Shown here piece by piece: positions 15,635 through 44,648 of a stretch of DNA of 64,000 nt. The stretch lies in contig CBDFLD010000016.1 in NCBI GenBank assembly GCA_965249005.1, forward strand, positions 342,264 through 406,263, in the 5' to 3' direction. The position numbers were made by a program, and so were the translations under genes. A model generated the notes under the pieces. The model was given only the letters and a program-made list of their open reading frames with translations, searched no databases and was not told where the DNA came from. Origin of the DNA: Acidobacteriota bacterium (GTDB taxonomy: Bacteria > Acidobacteriota > UBA6911). Numbering within the stretch: position 1 is the first letter of the stretch; the number at the start of each line of letters is the position of its first letter.

Positions 15635-17099
15635 GAACCAAAAGACGTGAGAGGTGTTGCCCGCCCGGTACCCAGCGGACCAATTCTGACAAGAGCGACG
15701 AGAACAGCAAGCGAAGGACGATGCAGTAGATCACCGTAAAAGTTAGTCCATAGACGGCTGCGATCGCAAAACTATGCAGATCAAGATCCCACCCGGAGCG
15801 CGCGCCCTCGCACATGACCCAGGAACCCAAGGCGGCGGCAACAGGGGGGATCAGACTGTTGAATATGACCCTGGGGGCAATGGAACGATTACGGCTCAGC
15901 CCATACAAGAGATACAGGTACCCAAATCCCTGCACCACCGTAAGCCCGATAAAGTACGCCGGAATGTTCAAGGGCAAGAACCAGTATAGCGACGCCGACG
16001 TTCCCAACAGAAGAAAGACGTCCACTTGGAGACATTGCTTCTGCTGCTGATTCGCCAGTGCCAGCATATAGACCCCGTGGTAGAGAGCCCAGGAGACCCC
16101 AGCGATGAACGCCCAGGGAAGAAGCGGCACGGCGTCCAGCCAGTTATCACCGTAGATGAGCAAGACCAGCGGCTCTGCGAGAATTGCACATACGACCGCA
16201 AGCGGGATCACTATCCAGGAAACGCTACTGAGCACGAGTCGACAGGCTCGTTCGTACGATGGTGTCTTCGGTTCGATGCGGGTAAGGACGGGATAAAGTG
16301 ATTGCAACAGTAGGAAAGCAAACTTGAAGCAAACGATTTGAGCCAAACCCACGGCCCTCCCGAATATCCCAAAACCCGCAAAGCCGTATATTCGTACGAA
16401 CACCGCACTCTCCAGAAGAGGCCGCCCGTACGTCGCGATCTCACTCAGGATCCGAGTGCGTCCGAACCGTAGTGCTGGTCCGTAATTCTTCGAGCTCCAT
16501 TTCCAGTTTGGTTTCCACTTTTTCACGAAAAACAGATCGTAGACGAACGGCAACGGGACGAGCATCCCCGGAAGGATGAGTGCATAAACGCCCAGCCCGT
16601 TGGCGGCCATCAGGACCGCTACCGAGGCATTCAACACCAGGCCTATCGCTTGCAAGGAACGCAGACGGCCCCAGTTCAAGTTTTTCTCCAGCATCTTTAC
16701 TCTAAACTCGCTGGGCCAGTGAAAAAGGAATATGGGAGACATGACGTGCAGAAAGAAGGCGATTCCACCGTAGGTTTCGTTCGACCACAGCAGTATGGCC
16801 GCCACATTGGTAATGACGAACATCCCCAGATGAATCACGCCCCCCGCGGTAAAATGATCCTGATAGTGGACATCTTTTGTTCCTCGAATCTGCAAGGTAT
16901 GGGCAACAAAGCTACGAAAGGAAAAAACGTAGAGAAAGCCAATGATCCCATTCACGAGTCCATATTGGCCGTAGACATCCGGCGAGAGGTACCTCACCAG
17001 AATCAGCGTAACCCCGAACTGGAGTACATCACGGAACATACTGAAGCTGGTATTCCACAACACGCCGCGCTGAGCTTGCTGAGCCAATGTGCGCATCAA
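15624..17099 (-). CDS. wzx: Wzx-type polysaccharide flippase (MOP superfamily)
   Basis: 491 aa with about 12-14 transmembrane helices. The N-terminus RGVLWNTSFSMFRDVLQFGVTLILVRYLSPDVYG is typical of Wzx/polysaccharide biosynthesis proteins. Confidence 0.8.
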   Translation of the reverse strand: MMRTLAQQAQRGVLWNTSFSMFRDVLQFGVTLILVRYLSPDVYGQYGLVNGIIGFLYVFSFRSFVAHTLQIRGTKDVHYQDHFTAGGVIHLGMFVITNVAAILLWSNETYGGIAFFLHVMSPIFLFHWPSEFRVKMLEKNLNWGRLRSLQAIGLVLNASVAVLMAANGLGVYALILPGMLVPLPFVYDLFFVKKWKPNWKWSSKNYGPALRFGRTRILSEIATYGRPLLESAVFVRIYGFAGFGIFGRAVGLAQIVCFKFAFLLLQSLYPVLTRIEPKTPSYERACRLVLSSVSWIVIPLAVVCAILAEPLVLLIYGDNWLDAVPLLPWAFIAGVSWALYHGVYMLALANQQQKQCLQVDVFLLLGTSASLYWFLPLNIPAYFIGLTVVQGFGYLYLLYGLSRNRSIAPRVIFNSLIPPVAAALGSWVMCEGARSGWDLDLHSFAIAAVYGLTFTVIYCIVLRLLFSSLLSELVRWVPGGQHLSRLLVLAR

Positions 17100-17207: not shown

Positions 17208-18311
17208 CTATTGGGCCCCGATGATGAGTAAGCTTGTAAAGATCCCGGAGATACCGTTGAGCAGGTTCTTGCCGATTCTCTTGGTCGTCGACCCGGGAAC
17301 GATGATCACATCGTTTCGCGCCAGCTCGACGTCGTTGGCCTTTCCCTTCATCACGTCGTTCACGTTGACGGCAATCTGAGTGGCGGATGATCCGTCCGGT
17401 TCGCGACGCATGATGGTGGTTTTGTTGGCGGAGGCAGTGTCGAGCATTCCACCAGCTGTGGCCAAAGCCTTGGAAAGCGTGATCCGTTCGTTCCTCCGGA
17501 TTTGAAACGCTCCCGACTTCTGCACATCTCCCAGGACGTAGTAGTAATGTCCCTCACGCTCGGGGACGGTGATGACGTCCCTGGAGTATATCGGAATGTT
17601 CAATCGATGGTTCCCGACCACGAGCAGGTCCTCCAGATCGACCTCGATGGTTTCCGAGTACCCATTTGGTTCAGAAGAGACCGGGATTCCTGCAGCCTTG
17701 CCATCGTCCGGCTCATCTTCACCTGAAGGAACTCTGTGAATGTACACCCTGGAGTAATCTGCGTCCTTTTCCAGTCCCCCGGCTAGCGATATCGCATCCA
17801 CCAGACTCATTTGGCGTGTCAGCTGGTAAGTGCCGGGCCTCTGGACGGAACCCAGCACATTGAAGAACTGGCTCTTGTATTCCGTTACCTTCACCGTTAC
17901 CTGGGGATCATTCAGTATGGAAGCCTCGAGCAGTGTGGCGATCTTGACCTCCGCATCCCGTGCCGCCAGACCTAGCAGCTGCACTTCATCGATAAAAGGG
18001 AGCAAAATCCGGCCCTTTGAATCCAGCGACAGGCTTTTTTGATTCAGTTCTGGAATCCCGAACACACTCACTTCGACAACATCGCCCGGTCCCAGCAAGT
18101 AATCCTGGGAGTGGCGCGATAGCAAAGCCAGTCTCTTGTTGAGGGACTCGCTATCGGGTTCCGAGGTTGCGTTTACGGCCTGTTGGCTGAGAAGTTGCTC
18201 GATGGAAAGAGGCACATGCTTCCGAGCCGTTTCATCTTCTGACAGATTCTGTGCCTTTACACTGCATGGGATCAGAAACAAAGCAAACATCAGCACCAAT
18301 GAGTTTTTCAT
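17208..18311 (-). CDS. wza: Wza-like polysaccharide export outer-membrane protein (Poly_export plus SLBB domains)
   Basis: It has a signal peptide (MKNSLVLMFALFLIPCSVKA). The Poly_export motif is LGPGDVVEVSVFG, and there are two soluble ligand-binding beta-grasp (SLBB) repeats (YQLTRQMSLVDAISLAGGL... and FQIRRNERITLSKALATAGGM...). Confidence 0.85.
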   Translation of the reverse strand: MKNSLVLMFALFLIPCSVKAQNLSEDETARKHVPLSIEQLLSQQAVNATSEPDSESLNKRLALLSRHSQDYLLGPGDVVEVSVFGIPELNQKSLSLDSKGRILLPFIDEVQLLGLAARDAEVKIATLLEASILNDPQVTVKVTEYKSQFFNVLGSVQRPGTYQLTRQMSLVDAISLAGGLEKDADYSRVYIHRVPSGEDEPDDGKAAGIPVSSEPNGYSETIEVDLEDLLVVGNHRLNIPIYSRDVITVPEREGHYYYVLGDVQKSGAFQIRRNERITLSKALATAGGMLDTASANKTTIMRREPDGSSATQIAVNVNDVMKGKANDVELARNDVIIVPGSTTKRIGKNLLNGISGIFTSLLIIGAQ

Positions 18312-18344: not shown

Positions 18345-20771
18345 TTACACGGCGTCCTGAGAATCATGTTGGCCATCCGGGCGCACACCATACCCATATC
18401 CGTAGCCATACTTTTTCCCGTAGCCGTAGTAGTAGTACTTCGAATAGTAGTAGTAATCCGCCGAGTGAACGTTGACGTCGTTCAGGAGTACGCCGATGAT
18501 GTGGGCATGGACATCCTGGAGGAGTCGCTTCGTTCGCTGCACGGCTTCCTTGGGAGTCTCCCCTCCCTTTACGACCAGGATGACACCGTCTGATTTCGTC
18601 GCCAAAATCCGGGCGTCCGTTACCGACAGAATCGGTGGGGAATCGATCACGATGTGGTCAAAATACTCTTCCAGCAACACGATCCCCTGCTCCATTCGAT
18701 GAGAGCCGGCCAGTTCGGCCGGGTTCGGAGGAATCCGGCCCGTAGTCACTGCAAAAAGGTTCGGGATATCTGTTTCCTGGATCAGGGAAGACAAGTCTGT
18801 ATTCCCAGAAAGATAACTGCTCATTCCGATGTTGTTTTCGAGGTTCAGGGCTCGATGCAAACGGGGGTTCCTCATGTCGAGGTCGAGAAGTATGACCTTG
18901 TCACCCGTCTGAGCCAGGGTGATCGCAATGTTGATCGCGGTGGTCGTCTTCCCTTCGCCCATTTGGCTAGAGGTTACGAGCAACGACTTGGGTGGTCGCC
19001 CCTTCCCGGAGGAAAGCAGTATTGAAGTCCTCAAGTTCCGATACGCTTCGGAAATCAACGACTTGGTGTCATTGTACGTGATGAGCTCGACCGAGGTCGG
19101 CCGACCCGGGACTTTCTCCTTGTTGTCTTCCGCGGCGTCGCCCTTCGTGCTGTCCGTCAGTAGTTTTTTCTGAGCAGGAGTCATGAAGGAGCTCAGGGCC
19201 GGAATCACCCCCAAAGAAGGTAACTTGATGTGACGGTCCACATCTTCCGGAGTCTTGACGCTACTATCCAAGTACTCGAGAAAGAAGGCTAGGGCCACGC
19301 CAATCAAGACACCAAAAACAAGCGCTATCATCAAATTGCGCGCCTTGTTCGGCTTGATCGCCCCACCCGGTGCTTCAGCCTCGTCCAATACGTGGATATT
19401 ATTCGATCTCAAACCGGCAGAAACGGTTGCCTCTTCTACCCGTTGGACCAAACCATCGTGTATCTCCTTGACAGTATCGGCTTCTCTCTTGAGTATCCCG
19501 TATTGGATGGAGCTCTGATTGATCTTGTTGGTCTCTGTTTTCTGCGCCTGCAAGGAGCGCTTCAGAAGCCCCTCCCGGTTGAGGGCAGTTCGATAAGCGG
19601 TCCCTATCTCCTGGATCGCCTTCTGTGACTCCTCCCTCAGTTGCTGCTCGGCCTCGGCGAGCTGAGACGCGACCTTCGCCAATTCCGGATAGTTGCCCTT
19701 GAAGACTGCCGACAACCGAGCTTTCTCCTGTCTGAGATCTTGCACCTTCAGCTCGGCGTTTCTCATTTCTCCGGTGCGCAGAACATCAGGGAATTGCTCG
19801 GGCGTGGAGTCCTTTACAATCTGCCAGATCGATTCTCTTTGAATTCGATCAGACTGTGCTGCGGTCAACGCGGCGTTCAAGTCTGAAAGCTTCTGCTGGC
19901 TGACGTTCTCTTCACCGCCGATATTGTAGATGTCATTTTCCTTACTGAATCGCAGCAGTTCTTGCTCCGCTTCCTCGACTTTGCTCCGCAACGTTTCAAT
20001 CTGGTCTTGGAGGAAGTCCTTGCTTTGGTTCGTGGACTCCAACTTGGTTTCGAAGTTCATCTCAATGTACTCGCCCGCCAAGGTATTCACTACCTCGGCG
20101 CCAAGTTGTGGGTCGTGATGCTCGAAACTGAGGTCGACGAGTCGGGTGTTCTTGACCGGGGCCACCGTTAGGTTGGCGACGAGGTATCCGGCCAAGCGAG
20201 AGTATTTCGAGGCATCCCGATCATCGCCCCGTTCCCCCCCGTCTTCCTGCAATTCGCCCAGCAAAGGAACCTGAGCCCCCATGCCGCGCACCCAGCTCAA
20301 CACTCTACTCGTTACGGTCGGATCCTCCGTCAACAAGAAGCGAGGGTCTTCCTCCAGGTTCATGGCAACGATAACCCTATCTGCGAGAGTCTGCGACTCG
20401 AGGATCTTGAATTGAGTCTGCAAGTACTCTTGGCTCTTGGCATAGACGGAGTATGGGTCGTAGGTATTCTGAAAAGGCAGGACATTCGATTGCTCGGCGT
20501 CTATTTGCAACCTCAGGGTCGCCTGGTAGATGGGAGTGGCTTTCCACGACGAGATGACCGACAAGCACGTCGCGGTGAAAACGATGGCCAACACAGTCCA
20601 ACGACGCTTCAAAAGCACACGCCAGTAATCGAGGATATGGATCCGATCGTCCTCTTCCTGTTCGATTTGTTCGTAAAGGTTCGGAGCGTGAGACTGGTAC
20701 TGGACCTCAGGAAGCTGCGATAGCTCGCTTGACCGGACTAGCTTGTTCGGCTCAATGTTGTTCTTGTCCAT
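18345..20771 (-). CDS. wzc: Wzc-like polysaccharide co-polymerase tyrosine autokinase (PCP-2a)
   Basis: 808 aa. It has an N-terminal transmembrane helix, a periplasmic coiled-coil domain and a second transmembrane helix. The Walker A motif is GEGKTTTAINIAITLA, and the C-terminal tyrosine cluster is ADYYYYSKYYYYGYGKKYGYGYGYG. Confidence 0.9.
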   Translation of the reverse strand: MDKNNIEPNKLVRSSELSQLPEVQYQSHAPNLYEQIEQEEDDRIHILDYWRVLLKRRWTVLAIVFTATCLSVISSWKATPIYQATLRLQIDAEQSNVLPFQNTYDPYSVYAKSQEYLQTQFKILESQTLADRVIVAMNLEEDPRFLLTEDPTVTSRVLSWVRGMGAQVPLLGELQEDGGERGDDRDASKYSRLAGYLVANLTVAPVKNTRLVDLSFEHHDPQLGAEVVNTLAGEYIEMNFETKLESTNQSKDFLQDQIETLRSKVEEAEQELLRFSKENDIYNIGGEENVSQQKLSDLNAALTAAQSDRIQRESIWQIVKDSTPEQFPDVLRTGEMRNAELKVQDLRQEKARLSAVFKGNYPELAKVASQLAEAEQQLREESQKAIQEIGTAYRTALNREGLLKRSLQAQKTETNKINQSSIQYGILKREADTVKEIHDGLVQRVEEATVSAGLRSNNIHVLDEAEAPGGAIKPNKARNLMIALVFGVLIGVALAFFLEYLDSSVKTPEDVDRHIKLPSLGVIPALSSFMTPAQKKLLTDSTKGDAAEDNKEKVPGRPTSVELITYNDTKSLISEAYRNLRTSILLSSGKGRPPKSLLVTSSQMGEGKTTTAINIAITLAQTGDKVILLDLDMRNPRLHRALNLENNIGMSSYLSGNTDLSSLIQETDIPNLFAVTTGRIPPNPAELAGSHRMEQGIVLLEEYFDHIVIDSPPILSVTDARILATKSDGVILVVKGGETPKEAVQRTKRLLQDVHAHIIGVLLNDVNVHSADYYYYSKYYYYGYGKKYGYGYGYGVRPDGQHDSQDAV

Positions 20772-21139: not shown

Positions 21140-21735
21140 AGTGAATTACCCTCGCCTGAAGGCGAGGGCTTCGGTCGTCGGCTGAAGCCGACTAAAGGCC
21201 TCGCCTCATAGAATGGCCTATTCCGTTATCTTAAAGTCCCGGTCCTCCTGGGGCTCGACACCTTGTTGCTCAATGTACTGCTTGATCACTTCGTCCGTCA
21301 CATTTCCTGTCGTACACACAAAGTACCCTCGTGCCCACAGGTGCCGGCCCCAGAACTCCCTTTGCACCGACCTATATTCCCTCATTAGATGGTGACTGCT
21401 CTTCCCCTTCACGGCCTGCATGATTCGGCTCGGCGACACCTGCGGCGGCATGCTCAACATCAAGTGCACATGATCTGGACTCACATTCCCTTTCACAATC
21501 ACCACATCCTCAGATGCACAGATCTCTCGGATCAGCTCTCTTGTCCTTCTGGCTATGTCCCCCTTCAGGACCGGCTTGCGGTACTTCGTGATAAACACAA
21601 AGTGATATTGCAGCTCATAGACTGTGTGCGATCCTTTCCGGTATCTCGGCATGCATCATTGTACCGCAAGCCTCCTAAAGGCTTCGCCTGAAGGCGAGGG
21701 ATTTCACCCATCCCCGAGTGGGACATTAAAAATAT
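21140..21735 (-). mobile_element. IS200/IS605-family insertion sequence, tnpA only, with subterminal hairpins
   Basis: The tnpA ORF is flanked by perfect hairpins: ccctcgcc-tgaa-ggcgaggg (21148-21167) and gtcggc-tgaa-gccgac (21176-21191) on one side, and tcgcc-tgaa-ggcga (21684-21697) on the other. A near-identical direct motif ctaaaggcYtcgcct sits at both ends (21191-21205 and 21675-21689). Confidence 0.75.
21218..21652 (-). CDS. tnpA: IS200/IS605-family Y1 (HUH) transposase TnpA
   Basis: 144 aa. The sequence MPRYRKGSHTVYELQYHFVFITKYRKPVL...SPDHVHLMLSMPP carries the HuH motif (HVHLM) and the catalytic Y near the C-terminus (YIEQQ). Confidence 0.9.
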   Translation of the reverse strand: MPRYRKGSHTVYELQYHFVFITKYRKPVLKGDIARRTRELIREICASEDVVIVKGNVSPDHVHLMLSMPPQVSPSRIMQAVKGKSSHHLMREYRSVQREFWGRHLWARGYFVCTTGNVTDEVIKQYIEQQGVEPQEDRDFKITE

Positions 21736-21845: not shown

Positions 21846-22718
21846 ATGCGATTATTCACTGCCGTTACATTCATTCTTCTAAACTTGGCCCCGTCTACCG
21901 GCAAGGTGGTTCTGAAGACCGGTATCGAAGGTGTCCGTTTCTCTCTCGACGGGACTTTCGTATCGACGACCGATGCCGAGGGCAAACTCGTGATGGAGGG
22001 TTTTCCGTCTGGCAGATTCAACTACGCGCTCGAGAAGTCCGGCTTTCGGCCAATTCAGGGGACCTTCGATGTTTCGGTCGACCAAGCAAGCATCATTGAA
22101 GTAAAGATGGTGGCACGGGTCTCGGCACCAAGCGAGAGCAAAGAGAAACCGCGACCGACACCGCGGGCATCTTTGACTTCCCCCAAGGCACACTCCGATC
22201 CCCACCAGACGGCAGACGGCTCGTCTTTGCGACCGGTTCCGGATAACACAAATCTTGCAAATCTTGCAAATCTTGCGGATGTTGGGGATGTCGCGGAAGC
22301 GGTGCATCCCATTGAGGCGCGTCCCTCTTCGGGGGCTCCCAACGTCATCGAACCTACGGAGCAACCTTCCAGCGTGGCCGGGATCTTGCTAGGGCTCCTG
22401 GGGGTGCTCTCACTTGCTGCATTCTTGATTTGGACGCAACGGCAAAAGGCGTCTCATTCTGGTCAGAGAATCGAGCGACTTGCGGCCGCGGTAGATCCGC
22501 TCTCGATTTGTCCGGAGCCGTCGACGGAAGACAAACTCGTTCCGGTCAAAGAAAGACCGGAATTCATTGATCAGATCCGCCGCCGTGAAGAACTCATCAA
22601 GGCCGGATTCGTCGGCGATCAGACCAAGAGCTTTGATCGCGACGAGGCGGCCGAGAGAGAGAAAGAAATCGTGATTGTGCTGCCGAAGGAAGCCTATAGA
22701 TACGAAGAAGAGCTTTAG
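21846..22718 (+). CDS. hypothetical single-pass membrane protein with an N-terminal PEGA-like beta-sandwich domain
   Basis: It has a signal/anchor (MRLFTAVTFILLNLAPSTG). GIEGVRFSLDGTFVSTTDAEGKLVMEGFPSGRFNYALEKSGF fits a PEGA domain. A Pro/Ser-rich linker follows, then a transmembrane helix (VAGILLGLLGVLSLAAFLIW) and a charged cytoplasmic tail. It contains a 9-bp x3 repeat. Confidence 0.45.
   Translation: MRLFTAVTFILLNLAPSTGKVVLKTGIEGVRFSLDGTFVSTTDAEGKLVMEGFPSGRFNYALEKSGFRPIQGTFDVSVDQASIIEVKMVARVSAPSESKEKPRPTPRASLTSPKAHSDPHQTADGSSLRPVPDNTNLANLANLADVGDVAEAVHPIEARPSSGAPNVIEPTEQPSSVAGILLGLLGVLSLAAFLIWTQRQKASHSGQRIERLAAAVDPLSICPEPSTEDKLVPVKERPEFIDQIRRREELIKAGFVGDQTKSFDRDEAAEREKEIVIVLPKEAYRYEEEL
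22251..22277 (+). repeat. 9-bp tandem repeat x3 (aatcttgca) encoding NLANLANLA
   Basis: Direct reading gives aatcttgca aatcttgca aatcttgcg. Confidence 0.8.
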
Positions 22719-22890: not shown

Positions 22891-23430
22891 ATGTTCTCCG
22901 GAGATTGGCGCCCCGGCAGTTTTGCTAGAGTCCCCACCAATCTCGTGGATACAGAAGTCCTCATCCGGGGCATGGGACCTCCCAAAATGGACCCTCGAAT
23001 GGTAGACGGACTGCTTCGCTTCATAGAGCTGGAGAATCAGGACAAGAAACTCTTGTGCTGCTCGTATGCCATGGTCGCCGCGGTTCGCTTGGCGTTGTGG
23101 TTGCTACCGTTTCGCACGACCCGGGCACTTCTGGACCGCATCCCCCGAAAACGGGAAGACCGGGCAGTCGCGCCCGAAAGACTGAGCTGGGCTGTCCGGA
23201 CATCAAGCCGTCGAGTATTGGGGGCGTCTTGCCTGACCCAGGCTCTTGCACTTCTCGTACTTTTGTCGCGCCAAGGACAGGTAGCACAGCTACGCTTTGG
23301 CGTCTGCCAGGACAGGACTCAAGGTTTTCGGGCTCACGCTTGGCTGATACTCAAGGGGAAGATCTTGATCGGGGAGGAACTCCTGGATCAATACACACCC
23401 ATCCGCATGCTGGGGAGTGAAGTCCGATGA
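22891..23430 (+). CDS. lasso peptide biosynthesis B2 protein (transglutaminase-like Cys protease, leader peptidase)
   Basis: 179 aa. The Cys...His...Asp arrangement CCSYAMVAAVRLAL...GVCQDRTQGFRAHAWLILKGKIL matches the McjB C-terminal/Transglut_core3 consensus (C..SLAL...L...G....L.IGV......F.AHAWVE..G). Confidence 0.85.
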   Translation: MFSGDWRPGSFARVPTNLVDTEVLIRGMGPPKMDPRMVDGLLRFIELENQDKKLLCCSYAMVAAVRLALWLLPFRTTRALLDRIPRKREDRAVAPERLSWAVRTSSRRVLGASCLTQALALLVLLSRQGQVAQLRFGVCQDRTQGFRAHAWLILKGKILIGEELLDQYTPIRMLGSEVR

Positions 23431-25289
23431 GCGGGATCGCCGGTGTCTTGTCCATGGACGAACCGTCGGTCGACCCCGGCATCGTTGCGGTCATGCTGGA
23501 GAGACTCGCGCGCAGGGGGCCTGACGGCCAAGGGCTCTGGACACAAGGCTCACTGTCGCTCGGGCACCGCATGCTAAAGGTAACTCCGGAATCGATGAAC
23601 GAGCATCTTCCATTGGTCAAAGACGAGATCGTTCTTACCTGCGACGCACGAATCGACAACCGCATCGAGTTGATCCGCGGGCTAAGGCTCCGCTCGGCGC
23701 CTGCCGACAGCGAGCTGATTCTGAGAGCCTATCAGGAGTGGGGAGTTCGTTGCCCAGAGAAGCTCCGGGGAGACTTTGCGTTTGCACTCTGGGACATAAA
23801 GAAGAGATGTTTCTTCGCCGCGCGAGATCGGATTGGGATAAAGCCCCTGTACTACGTATTGAATTCGAAGACCTTCGGCGTGGCCTCCGAAATATCCCCT
23901 TTGTTCGAAATCCCGAACGTTGCAAAAAGGCCCGACGTGGATTCTCTGAACGAATTCCTGGACCTCACGGTTGTGCCGGCGGACCGGACGCTCTATGACG
24001 GATTACGCCGGCTTCCGCCCGGACATACTCTGGTCCTGCAAGGCGGTCGAATGAGGCTGGATCGCTACTGGGCGCCAAATCCTCAGCTGGAGATGCGCCA
24101 GCCCAGCCTGTCGCAACATGCGGAGGAGTTTCGCGATCTCTTCTCAGAGGCAGTTGCGGCACAGATGCGAACATCGTCTGGGGTGGGGTGTCTGCTGAGC
24201 GGAGGTCTCGATTCATCCTCTGTTCTTTGCGTGGCAGCGGATGCGGCACCGGCTTCCGAGGCGCCGGCCGCATTCTCGATGATCTTCGATTCACTCGGCT
24301 GCGACGAGCGGGAGTTCATCCAAGAGGTGACGCGAAAGACCGACGTTCCGAGCTATGCGGCCGCCGTGGACGGGGCCGAGTCGTCGACGCTGCTCCAGAA
24401 ATACTCCTCGATGTGTCCGGACTGGCCTGTTCGCGGATTCTGCCCTACCGCTATCTGGCCGTTGATGGAACTTGCGCGCAAGGGTGGAACACGCGTCATG
24501 CTCACGGGACACGGCGGGGATCATGTCGCGGAAGGCAACCTGTCATCCCTGACGGATCTCATGAGGACAGGTCACGTGTCGGAGCTCTTGAGACAATTGC
24601 AGCCCTTTCGCTACGCACCCTCAGTGTGGATGGAATTCGTCATCAAACCGCTTCTGCCAAGGAGCTTCAAGAACCTGGCTCGGTGGCTGCTTCGCGCCGA
24701 AACAACCACCCTGCGCCAAAGCACCCTGCGTGAAAGCACCCTGCGCCAAAGCACCCTGCGCCAAAGCACCCTGCGCAAAAGATCGAATAGAGCGTTAGAG
24801 GGAGAGCGATCCGATCCATGGACACGGAACGGGAGCCACTTTGCGCACCAAGAGGCCCTGGCCCTGTTGTCGCCGAGTACGAGCCTGTGGCTCGATGGTT
24901 ATTGGGATGTTCTGGGCAGCCTATTTGGGATGGAGTTCCGGCACCCCTTTTTCGACTCTCGACTCATCGAGTACCTCCTGACGATTCCTCCGCAAGAGAA
25001 ACTCTGGGGAGGACAGACCAAGGTCCTCTTGCGAGAAGGAATGGATGGAATTCTCCCCGAACAAGTGCGTAACCGAACCGGAAAAGCGGAATTTTCACCT
25101 CTCGTAGAACACCAGCTCAAGCGCCTACCGTCACCTGCCATACGATCTCTTCGCCTGGCGCAGGACGGCTTTGTCAACCGAGAAAGACTTGCAACACTCA
25201 ACGGCGGATCGAAGCCTGGCCAGAGCAACAGCATCTCGCTATGGCCGGTTCTGTGTTTGGACGCCTGGTATGAAGCCAACTTCAATTGA
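23427..25289 (+). CDS. lasso peptide cyclase C (asparagine synthetase B homolog, macrolactam synthetase)
   Basis: 620 aa. It has an AsnB-like N-terminal domain but starts MSGIAG, with Ser where the glutaminase nucleophile Cys2 would be. The PP-loop is LLSGGLDSSSV. Its ATGA start overlaps the B2 stop. It contains the coding repeat (STLRQ)x5. Confidence 0.85.
   Translation: MSGIAGVLSMDEPSVDPGIVAVMLERLARRGPDGQGLWTQGSLSLGHRMLKVTPESMNEHLPLVKDEIVLTCDARIDNRIELIRGLRLRSAPADSELILRAYQEWGVRCPEKLRGDFAFALWDIKKRCFFAARDRIGIKPLYYVLNSKTFGVASEISPLFEIPNVAKRPDVDSLNEFLDLTVVPADRTLYDGLRRLPPGHTLVLQGGRMRLDRYWAPNPQLEMRQPSLSQHAEEFRDLFSEAVAAQMRTSSGVGCLLSGGLDSSSVLCVAADAAPASEAPAAFSMIFDSLGCDEREFIQEVTRKTDVPSYAAAVDGAESSTLLQKYSSMCPDWPVRGFCPTAIWPLMELARKGGTRVMLTGHGGDHVAEGNLSSLTDLMRTGHVSELLRQLQPFRYAPSVWMEFVIKPLLPRSFKNLARWLLRAETTTLRQSTLRESTLRQSTLRQSTLRKRSNRALEGERSDPWTRNGSHFAHQEALALLSPSTSLWLDGYWDVLGSLFGMEFRHPFFDSRLIEYLLTIPPQEKLWGGQTKVLLREGMDGILPEQVRNRTGKAEFSPLVEHQLKRLPSPAIRSLRLAQDGFVNRERLATLNGGSKPGQSNSISLWPVLCLDAWYEANFN
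24707..24781 (+). repeat. 15-bp tandem repeat x5 (caccctgcgccaaag) inside the cyclase gene, encoding TLRQSTLRESTLRQSTLRQSTLRK
   Basis: There are five consecutive 15-mers with 0-2 mismatches each. The repeat is in frame. Confidence 0.85.
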
Positions 25290-25308: not shown

Positions 25309-25488
25309 ATGGAAAAGCAAAACCCTAAGGATATTACGGTAGAGGAACAAGAAAAGACCAGTCCGTCTCAGCAGAAGGAATACACGACTCCACAGCTGAC
25401 AGAATACGGAAAAGTCGCCCAGGTCACCGGTGGACGTCCGGGCACGACGCGTGACTTCGGCGGGACTTCTCCAGCCTTCCCCGGATAG
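25309..25488 (+). CDS. lasso peptide precursor (A): a 41-aa leader plus the 18-aa core GRPGTTRDFGGTSPAFPG
   Basis: 59 aa: MEKQNPKDITVEEQEKTSPSQQKEYTTPQLTEYGKVAQVTG|GRPGTTRDFGGTSPAFPG. The RBS aaggag lies 10 nt upstream. The leader matches the YxxPxLx3Gx5TxG consensus exactly (Y25, P28, L30, G34, T40 at position -2). The core begins with Gly1 and has Asp8 as the ring acceptor, followed by bulky Phe9 and Phe16 as candidate plug residues. Confidence 0.85.
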   Translation: MEKQNPKDITVEEQEKTSPSQQKEYTTPQLTEYGKVAQVTGGRPGTTRDFGGTSPAFPG

Positions 25489-25507
25489 CGCCGGAGTTTG
25501 CCGACAC

Positions 25508-26410
25508 GTGATCGCAAAGCTAATCCGGAAAAAACGCCAGGCGTACTGGGCCTCGCTTGAGAGTGATCTGCCCCTAGGAACCCTTCCCGTTGGAGCCTCT
25601 GATCTGAGCACAACGGTCCGGATCCGAAGAACGGAGCACTCCAGACCGGCCCAAGGCACATTGGACCGCATGGAATGCTTCGTACAAGGGAGGCACCTCC
25701 TCGCCACGGGAAAGAGCGATCGCTGTCTCACAATCGATGGCGTCGGAGAGTTCTTTCTCGGCCAGGGTATGCAAGAGATCCAGTACCGTCACTTCCCGGG
25801 CGGCACCTCCAAGTTGATCGGCTACTGGCTTCTCCACTCCGTTCTACCCTTCCACCTTTTCTCCCAACGTAGTTTGGAGTTTCTTCATGCCAGCGCGGTT
25901 GCGATCGGAAGATTGTCGGCGGCATTCTTGGCGCCCTCTCATGGTGGGAAGTCCACACTTGCGGAGTACTTCGTGCGGAGGGGCCACCCACTAATCACTG
26001 ATGACAAGCTGGGAATACTGCAGTCCAACGGACAGTACCTGGCTGTGCCGGGAGTTCCCTTTCTTCGTCCCTATCGGAGATCCGAGGACCTGGGGTATCG
26101 CATCGAGAACTTTGCACGGGAGCCTCTTCCGCTTGGAACCTTGTACGTACTCCAAGCCAAGGATCCCGAAGCTCCGATCAAGATCAGGGAACATTCCCCT
26201 GCCGAGGCATCATGGGCCTTGACACAAAACTGGGAGTTTCGAATCGCGTCTAGAATCAAGGAGCGTTTCGAATACTTCGCCGACCTGGTGGCATGCACAA
26301 GGGTATGCAGCATCGAAATCCCGCGAGACCCAGCCCGGTTGCCCCAAGTCTACACCGCCGTTTGCCAAGACCTGGACGGATTGAAACAGCCTTCTGCTCA
26401 AGCCATCTGA
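25508..26410 (+). CDS. HPr kinase/phosphorylase C-terminal-domain homolog (lasso-peptide Ser/Thr kinase, PadeK-like)
   Basis: HASAVAIGRLSAAFLAPSHGGKSTLAEYFVRRGHPLITDDKLGIL matches the HprK P-loop block (H.gv.v.G.gvLI.G.SG.GKSetAleLv.RGHrLvaDD). A GTG start at 25508 follows a GGAG; the alternative ATG start is at 25670. Confidence 0.75.
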   Translation: MIAKLIRKKRQAYWASLESDLPLGTLPVGASDLSTTVRIRRTEHSRPAQGTLDRMECFVQGRHLLATGKSDRCLTIDGVGEFFLGQGMQEIQYRHFPGGTSKLIGYWLLHSVLPFHLFSQRSLEFLHASAVAIGRLSAAFLAPSHGGKSTLAEYFVRRGHPLITDDKLGILQSNGQYLAVPGVPFLRPYRRSEDLGYRIENFAREPLPLGTLYVLQAKDPEAPIKIREHSPAEASWALTQNWEFRIASRIKERFEYFADLVACTRVCSIEIPRDPARLPQVYTAVCQDLDGLKQPSAQAI

Positions 26411-26465: not shown

Positions 26466-26765
26466 ATGTCACCGAATCTCGAATCCAGAGTTGAAATCGC
26501 ACCGGAGATTGTCTACCAAAAAGTCGGCGAGGAAACCGTATTCCTGAACCTTCACACCGGCTTCTACTACGGTCTCGACTCAGTAGGAAGTCGCTTCTGG
26601 GAATTGCTGTCGGATCAGAGGGCTCCGATGCTGAGCGAGGTTCTCGAGGCAATCACCCGAGAATATGATGCTCCCACCGACAGGATCCAGATGGACATTC
26701 TGGAACTGGTGGAAAACCTTCATGCCAAAGGGCTGGTCACGCTGCCGACAGAGGCCGACTCGTAA
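26466..26765 (+). CDS. lasso peptide biosynthesis B1 protein (PqqD-family RRE, leader-binding)
   Basis: 99 aa. EIVYQKVGEETVFLNLHTGFYYGLDSVGSRFWELLSDQ...EVLEAITREYDAPTDRIQMDILELVENLHAKGLV is a canonical PqqD fold signature. The RBS is aggag. Confidence 0.85.
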   Translation: MSPNLESRVEIAPEIVYQKVGEETVFLNLHTGFYYGLDSVGSRFWELLSDQRAPMLSEVLEAITREYDAPTDRIQMDILELVENLHAKGLVTLPTEADS

Positions 26766-26769
26766 ACAA

Positions 26770-27456
26770 ATGAATATTCTCAATCGCGAAACGGTCCTGA
26801 AGCGCTGCTCAGAGCTGCGTATCCGCCTCGATCCAGGCAACCGCCTTCAAATATCGAACGACCGTCATCGGATCGAATGTCGGGGACAGGGACTTTCGAT
26901 CCTCGAGGTCTTCGCTCACCCGACGAGCGTCGGCGAGGCGATCCAGAAGCTGGGCACGAACCTCCCGGGTAGCCAGGCATTCGTAGACCTTGTCAACATG
27001 ATCATGGAGCTCCACCAGGCCGGAATCCTGGAATCGATCGATGGACGAACTTCGCCCCCGGATCCCGAGCCCGCCGGATTTGGCGCACCGCAGATCCACG
27101 TCCAGATGCTCAACGACCGGGAGCGAACTGCCAAGTACATCCAAGCCATCCGCGAGGTTGTCCGAGAAGGCGATGTCGTGGTCGAGATCGGCACCGGCAC
27201 GGGAGTGCTATCGGTGGCAGCAGCCCAAGCGGGCGCACGGCATGTCTATACAATTGAGGAAACCGGGATCGCAGATGGTGCGGAAGCCGTATTTGCGGCA
27301 AACAATCTGCAGAATCAGATTACGCTGGTACGCGGAAGATCCACCCAGGTACAGATACCCGAACGAGCGGATGTCCTGGTCAGTGAGGTAATCGGAAACG
27401 AGCCTCTGGCTGAAAAGGTCGTCCAGTATACACTGGATGCGCGCACTAGGCCTTAG
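26770..27456 (+). pseudogene. 5' part of an RRE-like/PRMT-like (protein arginine methyltransferase fold) methyltransferase gene, interrupted by an IS1380-like insertion
   Basis: The ATG lies 5 nt after the B1 stop. The N-terminal ~90 aa are PqqD/RRE-like (LRIRLDPGNRLQISNDRHRIECRGQGLSILEVFAHPTSVGEAIQKL). Motif I is VVVEIGTGTGVLSVAAAQAGARHVYTIEE, and the double-E loop is VLVSEVIGNEP. The ORF ends ...DARTRP* exactly where the IS begins. Confidence 0.7.
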
Positions 27457-29302
27457 TCCAGCGTGATTTTTTGCATGAGGAGGAAGAAAAGCCCTGGAAC
27501 GTGCGCCGTTACGGGATAAAATGCGTTTGATATATTTACAAGACATCCCGAAAGGAGCACATTCCAGGTGAATAAAAGAAACCACAGAATCCTCCTCCGA
27601 GACAAGCAAAATCTTACACGCCGGTTGGAAAGAAATCAGTTTGAGGACCGGTCCGATCCTATGTTCAAGGACTCCAACACCTACTACGAGATCGCCGAGA
27701 GAACGCGCGCCATCGGATCTGGTGGTATCGGAGCCATTCACAAGCTCGTGTGTAAGCTTGGATTGGACAAAGATATCAACAGAAACATCGTTTTGCTCAA
27801 GTACCACTTTCCTTACTGGGAATCCGATCATGTACTGAACATCGCATACAACGTCTTGTCGGGTGGAACCTGTCTCGAAGATATCGAGCGGTTGCGCCAG
27901 GATGAGACCTACATGAACGGACTGGGAGCCGAGAGGATTCCGGATCCCACGACGGCTGGAGATTTCCTCCGTCGTTTCGATGAGGATTGGATCTTCGGAC
28001 TTCAGGAAACCATCAATGAAACCCGAACCAAGGTGTGGAAGTTGCAGGATGCTTCCTTCCGGAAGGAGGCCATCATCGACGTGGACGGGACCGTCGCCGG
28101 AACCTTGGGGGAATGCAAGGAAGGAATGGACATTGCCTACAACGGGATCTGGGGTTACGCACCGTTGATCGTGACCTTGGCCAATACGAATGAGGTCCTC
28201 TATCTGATGAATCGGCCGGGCAACCGTCCCTCTTCCGACGGAGCGGCCGAGTGGATGGACCGGGCAATCGATCTGGTGTCGTCGGTGTTTACGAAGGTCT
28301 GGCTTCGGGGCGACACGGATTTCTCGCTGACGAGAAACTTCGATCGCTGGGACGAGCGGGTTGGTTTTGTCTTTGGTTATGACGCCAAGCCGAACCTGGT
28401 CGGGATGGCCGATGCCCTGCCGGAGAGACAATGGAAACCGCTCGAGCGGCCTCCTCGTTATGAGGTCAAGAGCGAAGAACGGCGCCGTCCGGAAAACGTC
28501 AAAGAACAAGTAATCAAGGAGAGAGAATTCAAGAACATCCGCCTGCAGAGCGAGCAGGTCGCCGAGTTTGACTATCGTCCCGGACACTGTAAGAAAACCT
28601 ATCGCATGGTTGTGGTTCGGAAGAACCTCACGATCGAAAAGGGGGAGCACCGGCTGTTTGATGAGGTCCGGTACTTCTTCTACATCACCAACGATCGGGA
28701 GATGACGATGGGAGAAGTGGTCCTTTTTGCCAACGATCGCTGCAACCAGGAAAACGTCATCGGTCAGCTCAAGAGTGGAGTGAACGCCTTGAGGATGCCT
28801 TCGGACAGTCTGGTATCGAACTGGGCCTACATGGTCATCGCATCGCTGGCGTGGAATCTGAAGGCCTGGTATGGCCTGGTGACGCAGGCGCCGACAGTAC
28901 GTCGTGATATCTTGAGGATGGAGTTCAAACGCTTCCTGGTGAACTTTGTGCAAATACCCTGTCAGATTGTAAGAACCGGTCGTCGCCTCGTTTACAGGAT
29001 ATTGGCCTATAGCAAGCATCTCGAAACCTTTTTGGCGACGTTCGACTATATCAGGCAACTCAGGTTTACTTGAAGGCGCCTCGCCGGCGGGTGAGCCCGT
29101 ACCCCCGGCGGAGCAAGAGTGGCGGGCGAAAGGAAGGGCATAACAGAGACAAACAAGATCAAGTGATCCAGACAACCAATGGAAGGTTTGTCTCTTGTGT
29201 TTCTCTTTGCTTTCCCTGTTACGCACAAGGAGCTGAAATCCACGAGATATTCGGAAAAGGCAAACGATTTTCCGAGCGAGCTCATACCTCGCTTATTTTG
29301 GG
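27451..29302 (+). mobile_element. IS1380-like (IS4-superfamily DDE) insertion sequence, about 1.85 kb, inserted into the methyltransferase gene
   Basis: It is flanked by the 6-bp direct repeat ACTAGG (27445-27450 and 29303-29308). Deleting 27451-29308 joins the two methyltransferase fragments in frame. The imperfect terminal inverted repeats start CC (ccttagtccagcg / RC cccaaaataagcg). It contains a single 501-aa transposase ORF. Confidence 0.7.
27568..29073 (+). CDS. IS1380-family DDE transposase (full length)
   Basis: 501 aa. The blocks are DVDGTVAGTLGECKEGMDIAYNGIWGYAPLIV (D...E..YNG.....PL) and the C-terminal NDRCNQENVIGQLKSGVNALRMPSDSLVSNWAYMVIASLAWNL, as in IS1380-type transposases. 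Confidence 0.8.
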   Translation: MNKRNHRILLRDKQNLTRRLERNQFEDRSDPMFKDSNTYYEIAERTRAIGSGGIGAIHKLVCKLGLDKDINRNIVLLKYHFPYWESDHVLNIAYNVLSGGTCLEDIERLRQDETYMNGLGAERIPDPTTAGDFLRRFDEDWIFGLQETINETRTKVWKLQDASFRKEAIIDVDGTVAGTLGECKEGMDIAYNGIWGYAPLIVTLANTNEVLYLMNRPGNRPSSDGAAEWMDRAIDLVSSVFTKVWLRGDTDFSLTRNFDRWDERVGFVFGYDAKPNLVGMADALPERQWKPLERPPRYEVKSEERRRPENVKEQVIKEREFKNIRLQSEQVAEFDYRPGHCKKTYRMVVVRKNLTIEKGEHRLFDEVRYFFYITNDREMTMGEVVLFANDRCNQENVIGQLKSGVNALRMPSDSLVSNWAYMVIASLAWNLKAWYGLVTQAPTVRRDILRMEFKRFLVNFVQIPCQIVRTGRRLVYRILAYSKHLETFLATFDYIRQLRFT

Positions 29303-29836
29303 ACTAGGTTCCTCAGAGACAATGCAAGGTTTGTGCCCAATCGGCTGGACGTTTATGGTTTGCCCGTCGTCGTGACCGAGGAGCAGCTGGCGAGGCACCT
29401 GTTCACGGAGACAACAGCAAAGCAGTGGCAGGATTGGTACGGAATAAGATTCCAGCCACTCACAGAACTCTCCCGAAATTCGCCTCATCCATGTTTCATT
29501 CGGCCACGGGACGCACGCCGATGGCAGAGCCTGAGTGCGCCAATCTTGTTGTCGAGCTATGACCTGGCGGAGACAGCGACTCCAGTCGTCCAGAACTCCG
29601 CCGGCAGCGTTGCCACCGCGCAGGGAGAGTGCAACGGATTGCTCGTGTTCTTCGAAGTACAGCTCGGACCTACAACCCGTCTCTCGACTCACCCGGAACA
29701 CGCCGGGGAAGCCAGTTCGTGGTATTCGCCCCTCTGGACTTTACCCGAGCCCATCTCACTTCACAGAGGAGATCGATTCGAAGTCCTCTACAAACATGAC
29801 GGCGACATGGGCCGTGTATGGGTTCGACGTTCCTAG
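29303..29836 (+). pseudogene. 3' part of the interrupted PRMT-like methyltransferase (C-terminal beta-barrel with THW-like loop)
   Basis: Read in frame from the right-hand ACTAGG: TRFLRDNARFVPNRLDVYGLPVV...SWYSPLWTLPEPISLHRGDRFEV. This parallels PRMT ...[21 protein letters not shown]...[22 protein letters not shown]. Confidence 0.7.
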
Positions 29837-29856: not shown

Positions 29857-31059
29857 GTGAGAAACGCGATCTTGCAACCTGAACAAGACGTCCTGCTCTG
29901 CTGCGCACGCAGTGCGCTCGATACGGGGAGCCGATTACGGCTCGCGAGTCTGCTCCGAAATGTAGTGGATTGGGATTATCTATTTCGCACCTCGCAGCGT
30001 CACGGTCTACTTCTATTGCTCCACAAGCATTTGATCGCCTGCGGAAGCACTGCGATTCCACCATCAGTCCTGCAGCGGATCAAAGACCACTTCCACCGAA
30101 ATGCGGCGCGCAACCTTCACATGACAGCCGAGCTATGTCGCGTCTTGGACTACCTGGAAGGCCACGGCGTCAGTGCCCTTCCATGGAAGGGTCCGGCACT
30201 GTCCGCATCCCTGTACGAAGACCTGACCGCACGGCAATATGACGACCTGGACGTACTGATTCGGGTCGAGGAGGTACCACGCGCTTTGCAACTGCTCCAA
30301 CGAATCGGATATCAGCCCCAATTCAGCCTCGGCGGCGCAGAAGAAGAAGCCTATCTCAGATCCAAATGCGAGTACGCGCTGGTGGAGCCACAAAAAGCCG
30401 TGGTTCTGGAAATACACTGGAGGATCGTTCCCAGGTACTTTTCCATCGATCTGGACATCGCTCCCCTCTGGGAACGGACGGACGCAATCACCCTGGGGAA
30501 CTCCAGAGTCCAGACACTCAAGAATGAAGATCTGATGATTCTTCTTGCAATTCACGGCGCATCGCACCTCTGGGATCGAGTTGGCTGGATCTGCGATCTC
30601 TCCGAGCTCCTTGCCCCGGCACACTCGTTGGACTGGGACTGGATTCTAAGGGAAACGAAGCGTCTCGGCTGCCGGCGGATCTTGATGTTGGGACTGAATC
30701 TGGCCAGTCAACTGCTAGGACAACAAATTCCGGACCAAATCGAAGGACATGTTCAGGAGCGATCGGCGACCCGGCTTGCCGAGACCGCCCGGCGTCGTCT
30801 TTTTCGAGACCACTGGGAGCAGCCCGGAATCGTCGAAGTCAACTATTTCCTGGTTCGGTCTCGCGAGCGATGGATGGATCGGGTCTTGTTCTGTATCCGC
30901 CTTGCGACGACAACCTCACCCGAAGACTGGGCCTTCTTGCGGCTCCCGAGGCTCTTGTTCCCCCTCTATGTTTTCGTTCGCCCCTTTCGATTGTGCATCA
31001 AATACTTTTCTTCCTACTGGCGGCAATCCGGATGGGGAACGGACGGTTCGAATGCGTGA
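29857..31059 (+). CDS. NTP_transf_5-type nucleotidyltransferase, an accessory enzyme associated with the lasso cluster
   Basis: 400 aa. VLLCCARSALDTGSRLRLASLLRNVVDWDYLFRTSQRHGLLLLLHKHL...LPWKGPALSASLYEDLTARQYDDLDVLI matches the 'uncharacterised nucleotidyltransferase' family that recurs in lasso BGCs. The stop overlaps the ABC exporter start. Confidence 0.7.
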   Translation: MRNAILQPEQDVLLCCARSALDTGSRLRLASLLRNVVDWDYLFRTSQRHGLLLLLHKHLIACGSTAIPPSVLQRIKDHFHRNAARNLHMTAELCRVLDYLEGHGVSALPWKGPALSASLYEDLTARQYDDLDVLIRVEEVPRALQLLQRIGYQPQFSLGGAEEEAYLRSKCEYALVEPQKAVVLEIHWRIVPRYFSIDLDIAPLWERTDAITLGNSRVQTLKNEDLMILLAIHGASHLWDRVGWICDLSELLAPAHSLDWDWILRETKRLGCRRILMLGLNLASQLLGQQIPDQIEGHVQERSATRLAETARRRLFRDHWEQPGIVEVNYFLVRSRERWMDRVLFCIRLATTTSPEDWAFLRLPRLLFPLYVFVRPFRLCIKYFSSYWRQSGWGTDGSNA

Positions 31060-44596: not shown

Positions 44597-44648
44597 TATT
44601 TCATTCCGTGTTTTCGACAGGCTCGGTCCGTCCTGTCGTCCTCTGGTT

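Follow-up and report, generated by a model that had tools for sequence, protein, structure and literature searches.

The gene at positions 23427-25289 of the window, the whole 64-kb stretch of DNA that was analysed, encodes a protein of 620 residues built like a glutamine-dependent asparagine synthetase. A preliminary description of the sequence had singled out two features of this protein, a Ser at the position of the N-terminal Cys nucleophile and an in-frame array of five pentapeptides in the synthetase domain. The locus raises the question of which reaction the protein catalyses, and of whether either feature sets it apart from its relatives. All features described below lie on the forward strand.

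The gene at 23427-25289 encodes a lasso peptide cyclase

Pfam places GATase_7 and GATase_6 at residues 32-160 of the protein and Asn_synthase at residues 234-616. The best family match is NCBIfam NF033535 (452.6 bits), a curated lasso-cyclase model of the 'exception' type with a strict cut-off of 525, which the score does not reach; the match runs in two stretches, the first of which stops at residue 393. The equivalog cut-off of TIGR01536 is passed by the protein (283.6 vs 267.1), and this explains the name 'asparagine synthase (glutamine-hydrolysing)' that has been given to homologues. For the protein encoded here that name is probably wrong.

The N-terminus of the open reading frame is MSGIAGVLSMDEP (MSGIAGV). 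The preliminary description had allowed that this end might be mis-called. Of the ATG, GTG and TTG codons in this frame, the one at 23427 is the earliest to follow the preceding stop, which leaves no room for a longer N-terminus, and the first position of the NF033535 profile pairs with the first residue of the protein. The ATG shares the tetranucleotide ATGA with the stop codon of the upstream B2 gene, and the sequence GGGGAG is found approximately 9 nt 5' of it.

The PP-loop SGGLDSS, an ATP pyrophosphatase motif read from the sequence at residues 258-264 (24198-24218), is intact, as had been claimed. In a 117-sequence alignment of the family, this motif has three invariant residues (G259, G260 and D262), and its other four (S258, L261, S263 and S264) show conservation of 90% or more. 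The AF2 model of the cyclase (pLDDT 90.4 overall, pTM 0.92) adopts an AsnB-like fold with an Ntn/GATase-like N-terminal domain and a C-terminal domain that bears the PP-loop. The nearest solved folds identified with Foldseek are TsnB9, AsnB, human ASNS, beta-lactam synthetase and carbapenam synthetase; a solved lasso-cyclase structure was found neither by the sequence search nor by the fold search. All 22 invariant columns of the family are kept, and of the 105 columns with conservation of 90% or more the protein departs from three, a count at the family median. The cyclase is ordinary for the lasso family, and its sole oddity is a short in-frame repeat.

A complete lasso peptide cluster surrounds the cyclase

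The genes of the cluster run in the order B2, cyclase, precursor, HPr-kinase-like protein, PqqD (B1), PRMT-like methyltransferase split by an insertion sequence (IS), nucleotidyltransferase and ABC exporter. The B2 leader peptidase, which is transglutaminase-like, is encoded at 22891-23430 (PF13471, E=5.6e-21; NF033537 lasso_biosyn_B2, 85.1 bits, cut-off 33), and the PqqD-type leader-recognition element B1 at 26466-26765 (PF05402, E=3.2e-15; NF033536 and NF033530 below their cut-offs). The precursor peptide of 59 residues is encoded at 25309-25488 with an AAGGAG ribosome-binding site upstream; it matches NF033521 lasso_leader_L3 at 19.2 bits (cut-off 19) and NF033528 below threshold. Its leader has Thr at position -2 and carries YTTPQLTEYG, an instance of the YxxPxLxxYG motif that is also present in Methylococcus and cyanobacterial clusters. 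The predicted core, GRPGTTRDFGGTSPAFPG (GRPGTTRDFGG stretch), has Gly1 and Asp8, and from this sequence we infer both the site of leader cleavage and a Gly1-Asp8 ring.

A probable tailoring kinase, HPr-kinase-like and with the P-loop GGKST, is assigned to 25670-26410; its start is putative within ORF limits of 25430-26410, and the longer ORF has a weak match to PF07475 (E=0.0055). The NTP_transf_5 nucleotidyltransferase occupies 29857-31059 (PF14907, E=7.8e-58). The ABC exporter (ABC_membrane and ABC_tran) has ORF limits of 30749-33013, with a true start probably near 31060. The same gene order surrounds a 42%-identical cyclase homologue in Methylococcus, where the gene at the kinase position carries a weak Hpr_kinase_C match and a gene of the NTP_transf_5 family stands at the nucleotidyltransferase position. 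An ABC exporter is located at the same position in this Methylococcus cluster and in cyanobacterial clusters.

The cyclase gene has as neighbours a B2 gene, a B1/PqqD gene and the gene of a precursor in which Thr stands at -2 and Asp at core position 8. This is a complete lasso peptide cluster in which the cyclase is the C gene. The preliminary assignment of the protein as a lasso macrolactam synthetase is borne out by its family match and fold, by the B2 and precursor genes that flank it, and by PqqD/B1 downstream.

The methyltransferase gene of the cluster is interrupted. Its 5' part, encoding a PRMT/PrmA-like SAM methyltransferase (26770-27450; PF06325 PrmA, E=2.9e-10), is separated from its 3' part, encoding the PRMT oligomerisation domain (29309-29836; PF17286 PRMT5_C and PF22528 PRMT_C), by an insertion sequence of approximately 1.85 kb (27451-29302) with a DDE transposase gene at 27568-29073 (PF13701 DDE_Tnp_1_4, E=1.3e-27). 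The element is flanked by a 6-bp direct repeat, ACTAGG (27445-27450 and 29303-29308); a search for its terminal inverted repeats found none. Two more transposase genes lie nearby. Joining 26770-27450 to 29309-29836 restores one open frame. Since this tailoring gene is disrupted, the strain may have a cluster that works only in part. In the literature searched, no paper was found to link PRMT-like methyltransferases with lasso clusters; the one paper containing both terms concerns saskemycin.

Ser at the amidotransferase nucleophile position is the family norm

E. coli AsnB has an N-terminal Cys nucleophile and binds glutamine through Arg49, Asn74, Glu76 and Asp98. We aligned the cyclase with this enzyme (1ct9) and with TsnB9 (7ylz). 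The cyclase sequence MSGIAG pairs with MCGVAG of 7ylz, and the AsnB alignment is in the same register, so Ser2 (codon AGC, 23430-23432) occupies the position of the class-II amidotransferase Cys nucleophile, as the preliminary description had it. At the glutamine site, AsnB R49, N74, G75 and E76 align with M49, D73, A74 and R75 of the cyclase, and only the equivalent of Asp98 (D94) is kept. Because Ser stands for Cys and these four residues are replaced, glutamine hydrolysis is not expected. A glutamine-hydrolysing asparagine synthetase (AsnB, TIGR01536) was rejected as the identity of the protein, as the catalytic residues are absent (Ser2, Met49, Asp73 and Arg75 take their places) despite the pass of the HMM cut-off.

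The lack of Cys is a property of the family. Approximately 242 of 265 homologues start with Met, Val or Leu followed by Ser, and none of the 265 has Cys at position 2. Such a start is seen in 111 of the 120 best homologues (Cys in 0), and Ser is found in approximately 131 of 145 further representatives at 50% identity (again, Cys in 0). The family consensus for the N-terminus is MSGIAGI, and in the 117-sequence alignment Ser2 is at least 90% conserved. M49 and D73 reach the same level of conservation there, and R75 is invariant; A74 lies outside the conserved columns. Ser2 had been put forward as noteworthy. The absence of Cys stands, but it is no peculiarity of this gene, and a residue conserved to this degree gives no information beyond 'lasso-type cyclase'. 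According to a 2026 preprint, the N-terminal domain of lasso macrocyclases is what is left of the glutamine amidotransferase domain, conserved and without catalytic activity. Literature searches returned this general view of N-domain inactivity and nothing specific on a Ser in place of the nucleophile in lasso cyclases.

The conservation could also be read as the mark of a working site. Once Met is removed, the N-terminal Ser would be exposed, as it is in Ser-type Ntn hydrolases. With the surrounding pocket of M49, D73, R75, D77, N78 and D94, which is remodelled but conserved in the family, it could bind the newly formed Gly1 amine or take a proton from it, or it could keep the peptide in the pre-lasso fold. 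Independently of this, the pentapeptide tract could form a lid of tunable length over the helical subdomain. The evidence for these proposals is conservation, and we regard them as unlikely.

A pentapeptide repeat varies in copy number among close relatives

Tandem Repeats Finder (TRF) reports an array at 24707-24781 with a period of 15, 5.0 copies, 91% matches and a score of 129, confirming the 75-bp block of five 15-bp repeats described earlier; it is the strongest tandem array in the window. In codon phase the array spans 24705-24779 and encodes (T/S)TLR(Q/E/K) five times in frame at residues 427-451, with the units in the order TTLRQ, STLRE, STLRQ, STLRQ and STLRK. Three of the five units are identical in DNA. 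At up to 2 mismatches the 15-bp unit occurs five times compared with 0.19 expected, a count reached in 0 of 100 shuffles, and it occurs nowhere else in the window at this tolerance. Rfam identified no RNA element in or near the tract, and consensus scans for promoters and terminators were at background. A pentapeptide-repeat protein (PF00805) was rejected, with no profile match at E<=0.01, only five units, and a low-confidence helix or coil in the model.

Five units are present in P0121, which is identical to the window protein and lies on a 427,328-bp contig, and in P0001, which carries two substitutions and comes from another assembly (353,789-bp contig). Three units are present in P0002 and P0122, two separate records of a 91%-identical orthologue, encoded on contigs of 152,524 bp and 2,180,460 bp, respectively. 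This difference, five units in the window lineage against three in the orthologue at the protein level, supports the earlier suggestion of a recent and possibly strain-variable slippage event. Comparable arrays are absent from all other members of a set of 267 homologues. A protein scan of genome contigs returned only a 33%-identical Omnitrophota homologue, and the same scan of metagenome contigs gave no match. Five metagenome loci that matched the DNA pattern of the repeat had no cyclase homology and were set aside as chance matches. The tract is a coding repeat confined to this lineage, with a copy number that varies, and it most likely represents a slippage polymorphism close to neutrality.

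The tract is modelled as a low-confidence helix or coil, with a pLDDT of 44-65 vs 90 overall, and in a consensus-like homologue modelled at 94.3 no internal part scores lower than this segment (pLDDT 71-79). Measured from LP to ExRxPF, the surrounding segment has 91 residues in the cyclase, 83 in P0002 and 73-77 in the sister clade; for the narrower segment the figures are 59 residues in the cyclase and 34-60 (median 48) across 117 homologues. The tract had been proposed to lengthen a surface loop, and its low model confidence and the length variability of the segment suggest that it may do so.

Most homologues carry a semi-conserved G-x-P-x-W-x-N-x-x-F element where the tract sits, so an effect of the tract on function is conceivable. 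The tract could be a functional element of tunable length on the helical subdomain, either a flexible lid or a docking arm for B1, B2 or substrate, with its copy number under selection through effects on activity or substrate scope. It takes the place of the semi-conserved element, it is in frame and retained in both lineages, and its units are conserved in protein apart from the fifth residue (Q/E/K). However, this segment is the most variable in length and the least confidently modelled even in canonical members, the near-identity of the units in DNA speaks for a duplication in the recent past rather than for selection over a long time, and arrays of this kind are absent from the other homologues. 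In addition, a period of five residues would give no amphipathic helix face. We consider selection on copy number quite unlikely, and retain the reading of a near-neutral slippage polymorphism.

The repeat might instead be a symptom of relaxed constraint in a decaying or non-functional cyclase within a degenerating cluster. The insertion sequence in the cluster methyltransferase, the two further transposase genes and the NF033535 score under its cut-off would fit such decay. The cyclase itself argues against it, as its ORF is intact, its complement of invariant columns is full (22/22), its deviations from near-invariant columns (3/105) are at the family median, its model is confident outside the tract, and the 91%-identical orthologue is also intact. 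Decay is therefore very unlikely. Tandem repeats are a classic source of assembly error, but it is hardly credible that the five copies here are a mis-count made in assembly or sequencing, since a 75-bp array should be shorter than a typical short read, the same five-copy tract recurs in a second record from a different assembly two substitutions apart, and the three-copy form is also found in two separate records.

Proposed mechanism and significance

Judged by homology and gene context, the protein is very probably a functional lasso cyclase with an inactive N-terminal domain, a Ser2 normal for its family and a repeat that is most likely slippage-made and near-neutral. In the proposed pathway, B1 (PqqD) would bind the YxxPxLxxYG leader of the 59-residue precursor and B2 would cut after the Thr(-2)-Gly(-1) site. 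The PP-loop domain of the cyclase, with ATP, would adenylate the side-chain carboxylate of Asp8 in the core, and the free Gly1 amine would attack the adenylate to form an isopeptide ring of eight residues. Ammonia would not be needed, so the N-terminal domain would be a glutaminase remnant in which Ser, the residue usual in the family, stands for Cys. Four more positions of the AsnB glutamine site have changed in it, and at three of these the new residue is conserved across the family. The five (S/T)TLRx units are a coding tandem repeat that would have arisen by replication slippage in the most variable and least ordered linker of the family, which lies within the helical region of long AsnB homologues between the GxGGD and ExRxPF motifs. 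Catalysis is most likely affected little or not at all by the repeat; the neutrality of the repeat, like its surface exposure and the slippage mechanism itself, is what we infer.

The locus suggests that AsnB-like genes starting with MSG(I/V)xG beside transglutaminase-like and PqqD genes should be read as lasso cyclases and not as glutamine-hydrolysing asparagine synthetases, whether or not their scores exceed the TIGR01536 cut-off. Where the repeat sits, the cyclase tolerates inserted stretches of 10 or more residues, which offers a possible permissive loop for engineering. The cluster encodes an uncharacterised lasso peptide of 18 residues, GRPGTTRDFGGTSPAFPG, and a PRMT-like tailoring gene that is IS-disrupted here. 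The importance for biology at large is little.

Comparison with known systems

AsnB (1ct9), human ASNS and TsnB9 (7ylz) share the fold of the cyclase (Foldseek E 1e-25 to 1e-31, target-length TM-score 0.75-0.79) as well as the PP-loop and ExRxPF. The cyclase differs from AsnB in having Ser for Cys1, Met for R49, Asp for N74, Ala for G75 and Arg for E76, and in approximately 90 extra residues between GxGGD and ExRxPF. Beta-lactam synthetase (1jgt) and carbapenam synthetase (1q15) are likewise derived from AsnB, adenylate a carboxylate, close an intramolecular amide and have a vestigial N-terminal domain. In contrast to the cyclase, they act on small-molecule substrates and are without RiPP partners, and sequence similarity to them is very low (E=3.8e-5 for 1jgt).

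The repeat resembles coding VNTRs formed by slipped-strand events in its head-to-tail, near-identical units, in a unit length that is a multiple of 3, and in a copy number that differs between close relatives. It differs in that the array is in frame and lies inside a cytoplasmic biosynthetic enzyme, not a surface protein. Being in frame, it cannot switch the gene on or off.

The closest comparison is with the lasso cyclases of NF033535, of the paeninodin type with split B1/B2 and an HPr-kinase homologue. The cyclase encoded at 23427-25289 differs from these in its lineage-specific repeat of 5 x 5 residues and its score below the cut-off, and its cluster in the PRMT-like methyltransferase, here IS-disrupted. 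Known lasso kinases phosphorylate a C-terminal Ser, whereas the last residue of the precursor here is not Ser. Kinase and nucleotidyltransferase tailoring genes have been reported for the paeninodin and pseudomycoidin clusters (PMC8498205). The cyclase shares with these lasso cyclases the two-domain AsnB-like fold, SGGxDS, the lack of Cys and the MSGIAG start, and the same cluster partners: B2, precursor, PqqD/B1, a kinase-like gene, a nucleotidyltransferase and an ABC exporter.

Family assignment and N-terminus of the cyclase

The gene at 23427-25289 (+) encodes a protein of 620 residues (N-terminus MSGIAGVLSMDEP) with GATase_7/GATase_6 and Asn_synthase domains. Its best NCBIfam match is NF033535, ‘lasso peptide isopeptide bond-forming cyclase’, at 452.6 bits, which is under the strict cut-off of 525; the match breaks off at residue 393 and continues in a second stretch. 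The protein also passes the cut-off of TIGR01536, ‘asparagine synthase (glutamine-hydrolyzing)’ (283.6 vs 267.1), and many homologues carry that name in their sources. For the window cyclase the name is probably wrong, and identity as a true AsnB was rejected on the catalytic residues. With 117 homologues as input, AlphaFold2 gave a confident model (pLDDT 90.4, pTM 0.92), whose nearest solved structures were TsnB9, AsnB, human ASNS, beta-lactam synthetase, and carbapenam synthetase; no lasso cyclase was found among the solved structures searched. Every structural and contextual feature of a lasso cyclase is present, and only the strict NF033535 score is missed. The gene neighborhood, including B2, precursor, and PqqD genes, settles the assignment, and the cyclase is a member of this known kind.

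Position 23427 is the earliest possible start codon downstream of the preceding in-frame stop, the ATG shares bases with the stop of the gene before it (ATGA), and a GGGGAG motif lies ahead of it, so the N-terminus cannot be extended. Position 1 of NF033535, a curated lasso-cyclase profile, aligned to residue 1. The N-terminal MSGIAG lies opposite MCGVAG of the amidotransferase TsnB9 (7ylz) and the alignment to E. coli AsnB (1ct9) has the same register, which places Ser2 at the nucleophile position; the PP-loop SGGLDSS spans residues 258-264. The preliminary description had reported this start, the serine in place of the glutaminase nucleophile, and the PP-loop, all of which are confirmed by the open reading frame limits, the profile, and the two alignments. 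In the protein record P0001, from another assembly of the same lineage, the gene is called from Met57 (564 aa) rather than Met1; the gene caller may have preferred this start, or that assembly may have a frameshift or stop further upstream.

Ser2 and the remodelled glutamine site

A Met/Val/Leu-Ser start was present in 111 of the 120 best homologues, 51 of which begin with exactly MSGIAGI, and Cys occurred at position 2 in none. In 145 additional sequences, each representing a 50%-identity cluster, Ser was counted ~131 times and Cys never. The 117-sequence alignment shows conservation of 90% or more at M1, S2, I4, and G6. Judged from these sequences, Ser2 is diagnostic of the lasso-cyclase family and not peculiar to the window gene.

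Arg49, Asn74, Glu76, and Asp98 of E. coli AsnB have glutamine-binding roles. In the alignment, AsnB Arg49, Asn74, Gly75, and Glu76 correspond to Met49, Asp73, Ala74, and Arg75 of the cyclase, and of the glutamine-site positions compared only the Asp98 equivalent (D94) is kept. Across the lasso family, Arg75 never varies and conservation reaches at least 90% at Met49 and Asp73; Ala74 lies outside the conserved columns. The N-terminal domain of lasso macrocyclases has been described as what remains of a glutamine amidotransferase domain, conserved and without catalytic activity (2026 preprint, bioRxiv 10.64898/2026.07.03.736388); literature searches for a specific statement on Ser2 of lasso cyclases found none. 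Collectively, Ser2 as the family norm, the replaced pocket, and the inactive domain show that the earlier proposal of an adenylating lactam synthetase without glutaminase activity was correct. That the conserved Ser-headed pocket is itself a working site, for which conservation is the one argument, seems unlikely.

In the pathway that we propose, B1, the PqqD-type leader-recognition protein, would bind the precursor leader and the peptidase B2 would cleave it. The PP-loop domain of the cyclase would then activate the side chain of Asp8 by adenylation, and the amine of Gly1 would close the ring, with no glutaminase role for the vestigial N-domain.

A lineage-specific coding repeat

Tandem Repeats Finder identified an array at 24707-24781 of period 15 and 5.0 copies (91% matches), with a score of 129, the highest in the 64-kb window. 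With two or fewer mismatches allowed, five matches to the unit were counted in the window (0.19 expected), all of them in the array. Read in frame, the tract encodes residues 427-451 (TTLRQ, STLRE, STLRQ, STLRQ, STLRK), and three of the five units are identical in DNA. The 75-bp array of five in-frame 15-bp repeats had been noted from the sequence, and both the repeat search and the translation agree. Rfam, promoter, and terminator scans in and near the tract were empty or at background.

The copy number had also been proposed to vary. This holds between two close lineages, which have five and three copies, while within each pair of protein records it is stable. Five copies are present in P0121 (identical to the window protein; contig of 427,328 bp) and in P0001 (two substitutions; contig of 353,789 bp). 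The orthologue has three (TTLRE, STLRQ, STLRK) in P0002 (91% identical to the window protein; contig of 152,524 bp) and in P0122 (two residues different from P0002; contig of 2,180,460 bp). By the fifth residue, the units of the window protein run Q,E,Q,Q,K and those of the orthologue E,Q,K, a difference that takes two or more gains or losses to explain. Of the 267 homologues compared, no other carries an array like it.

From the conserved anchor LP to the anchor ExRxPF, the window protein has 91 residues, the orthologue 83, and members of the sister clade, which is Methylococcus-like, 73-77; a narrower segment is 59 and 51 residues in the first two, whereas the 117 homologues range from 34 to 60 with a median of 48. 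The array is thus a net gain of about two to three units in an already length-variable segment. The AlphaFold2 model has a single weak region, residues 421-470, with pLDDT of 65, 44, 53, 55, and 60 in successive ten-residue blocks. In P0038, a consensus-like homologue (pLDDT 94.3), the corresponding segment is the weakest internal part (75, 79, 71, 78). The models fit a flexible, probably exposed linker in the helical region of long AsnB homologues, between the GxGGD and ExRxPF motifs.

These data very probably describe a working lasso cyclase whose repeat arose by slippage and is a near-neutral polymorphism of a permissive linker. A functional lid, tunable through its length, is a distinctly less plausible role for the repeat. 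Decay of the gene is more improbable still, as constraint outside the tract is normal: all family-invariant columns are kept and the three deviations in 105 near-invariant columns equal the family median. An assembly artefact is the least credible explanation of the five copies, as independent assemblies agree on this short array of 75 bp. The coding repeat is the only new element of the cyclase and is a curiosity, although it may mark a permissive insertion site.

The lasso cluster and its surroundings

All genes of the cluster lie on the forward strand. The B2 peptidase (22891-23430; NF033537, above cut-off) precedes the cyclase, which is followed by a precursor of 59 residues (25309-25488); its gene has the ribosome-binding site AAGGAG, and its leader carries the motif YTTPQLTEYG. 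The predicted core is GRPGTTRDFGGTSPAFPG, with Thr40 at position -2 and a putative Gly1-Asp8 ring, as first suggested; it contains two Arg residues. An HPr-kinase-like gene (about 25670-26410), PqqD/B1 (26466-26765), a PRMT-like methyltransferase in two parts (26770-27450 and 29309-29836), an NTP_transf_5 nucleotidyltransferase (29857-31059), and an ABC exporter (up to 33013) follow.

The PRMT/PrmA-like SAM methyltransferase gene (26770-29836) is split by an insertion sequence of ~1.85 kb (27451-29302) that carries a DDE_Tnp_1_4 transposase gene (27568-29073) and is flanked by 6-bp direct repeats, ACTAGG, at 27445-27450 and 29303-29308. Removal of the element and one ACTAGG copy in silico rejoined the two parts into one open frame that has its SAM-binding part at the N-terminus and a PRMT oligomerization domain at the C-terminus. 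No link between PRMT-like enzymes and lasso clusters was found in a literature search, whose sole match was a paper on saskemycin. Genes for an IS200-type Y1 transposase (21218-21652, -) and a Mutator-family transposase (35890-37209, -) flank the cluster and, with the DDE element, make three mobile-element genes within ~16 kb. Immediately upstream of the cluster, an open reading frame with a weak CarboxypepD_reg match (21846-22718, +) contains a second in-frame perfect tandem repeat (22249-22276; 9 bp x 3.1, CAAATCTTG) encoding ANLANLANL. UvrC (42749-44755, -), IleS (49771-52632, -), and ClpB (58639-61260, +) indicate that the window is chromosomal.

The cluster adjoins a Wzz/GNVR/AAA_31 polysaccharide co-polymerase tyrosine-kinase gene (18345-20771, -) that ends a polysaccharide export locus (Poly_export/SLBB, 17208-18311; flippase-like, 15624-17099). 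A gene of this kind also lies beside a cyanobacterial lasso cluster (locus L009, 1-1275), which may be coincidence.

Comparison with related lasso clusters

The homologue from Methylococcus sp. ANG (CP160399.1) is 42% identical, and its locus has the gene order of the window cluster: B2, cyclase, a 57-aa open reading frame, kinase-like, (radical SAM), PqqD, NTP_transf_5, and ABC. The cyanobacterial homologue, named a lasso cyclase by NCBI, has PqqD, B2, a small open reading frame, and ABC as neighbors. The small open reading frames of both loci have a leader motif in common with the window precursor. The one from Methylococcus (locus L007, 6860-7033), MNVSEQQDIRLINEEPKKLYTVPVLSEYGNMTTLTQGSLVLSVVTPLTATLADVAGG, follows the cyclase and has a lasso-type leader motif; if it is cleaved as predicted (TQ|G), its core lacks Asp and Glu at positions 7-9 and has its first acidic residue at about position 17. 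A radical SAM gene is also part of that cluster. The HPr-kinase-like and NTP_transf_5 genes of the window have counterparts in the paeninodin and pseudomycoidin clusters, where the kinase target is a C-terminal Ser (PMC8498205). Unlike those targets, the window precursor ends in ...TSPAFPG, without a C-terminal Ser.
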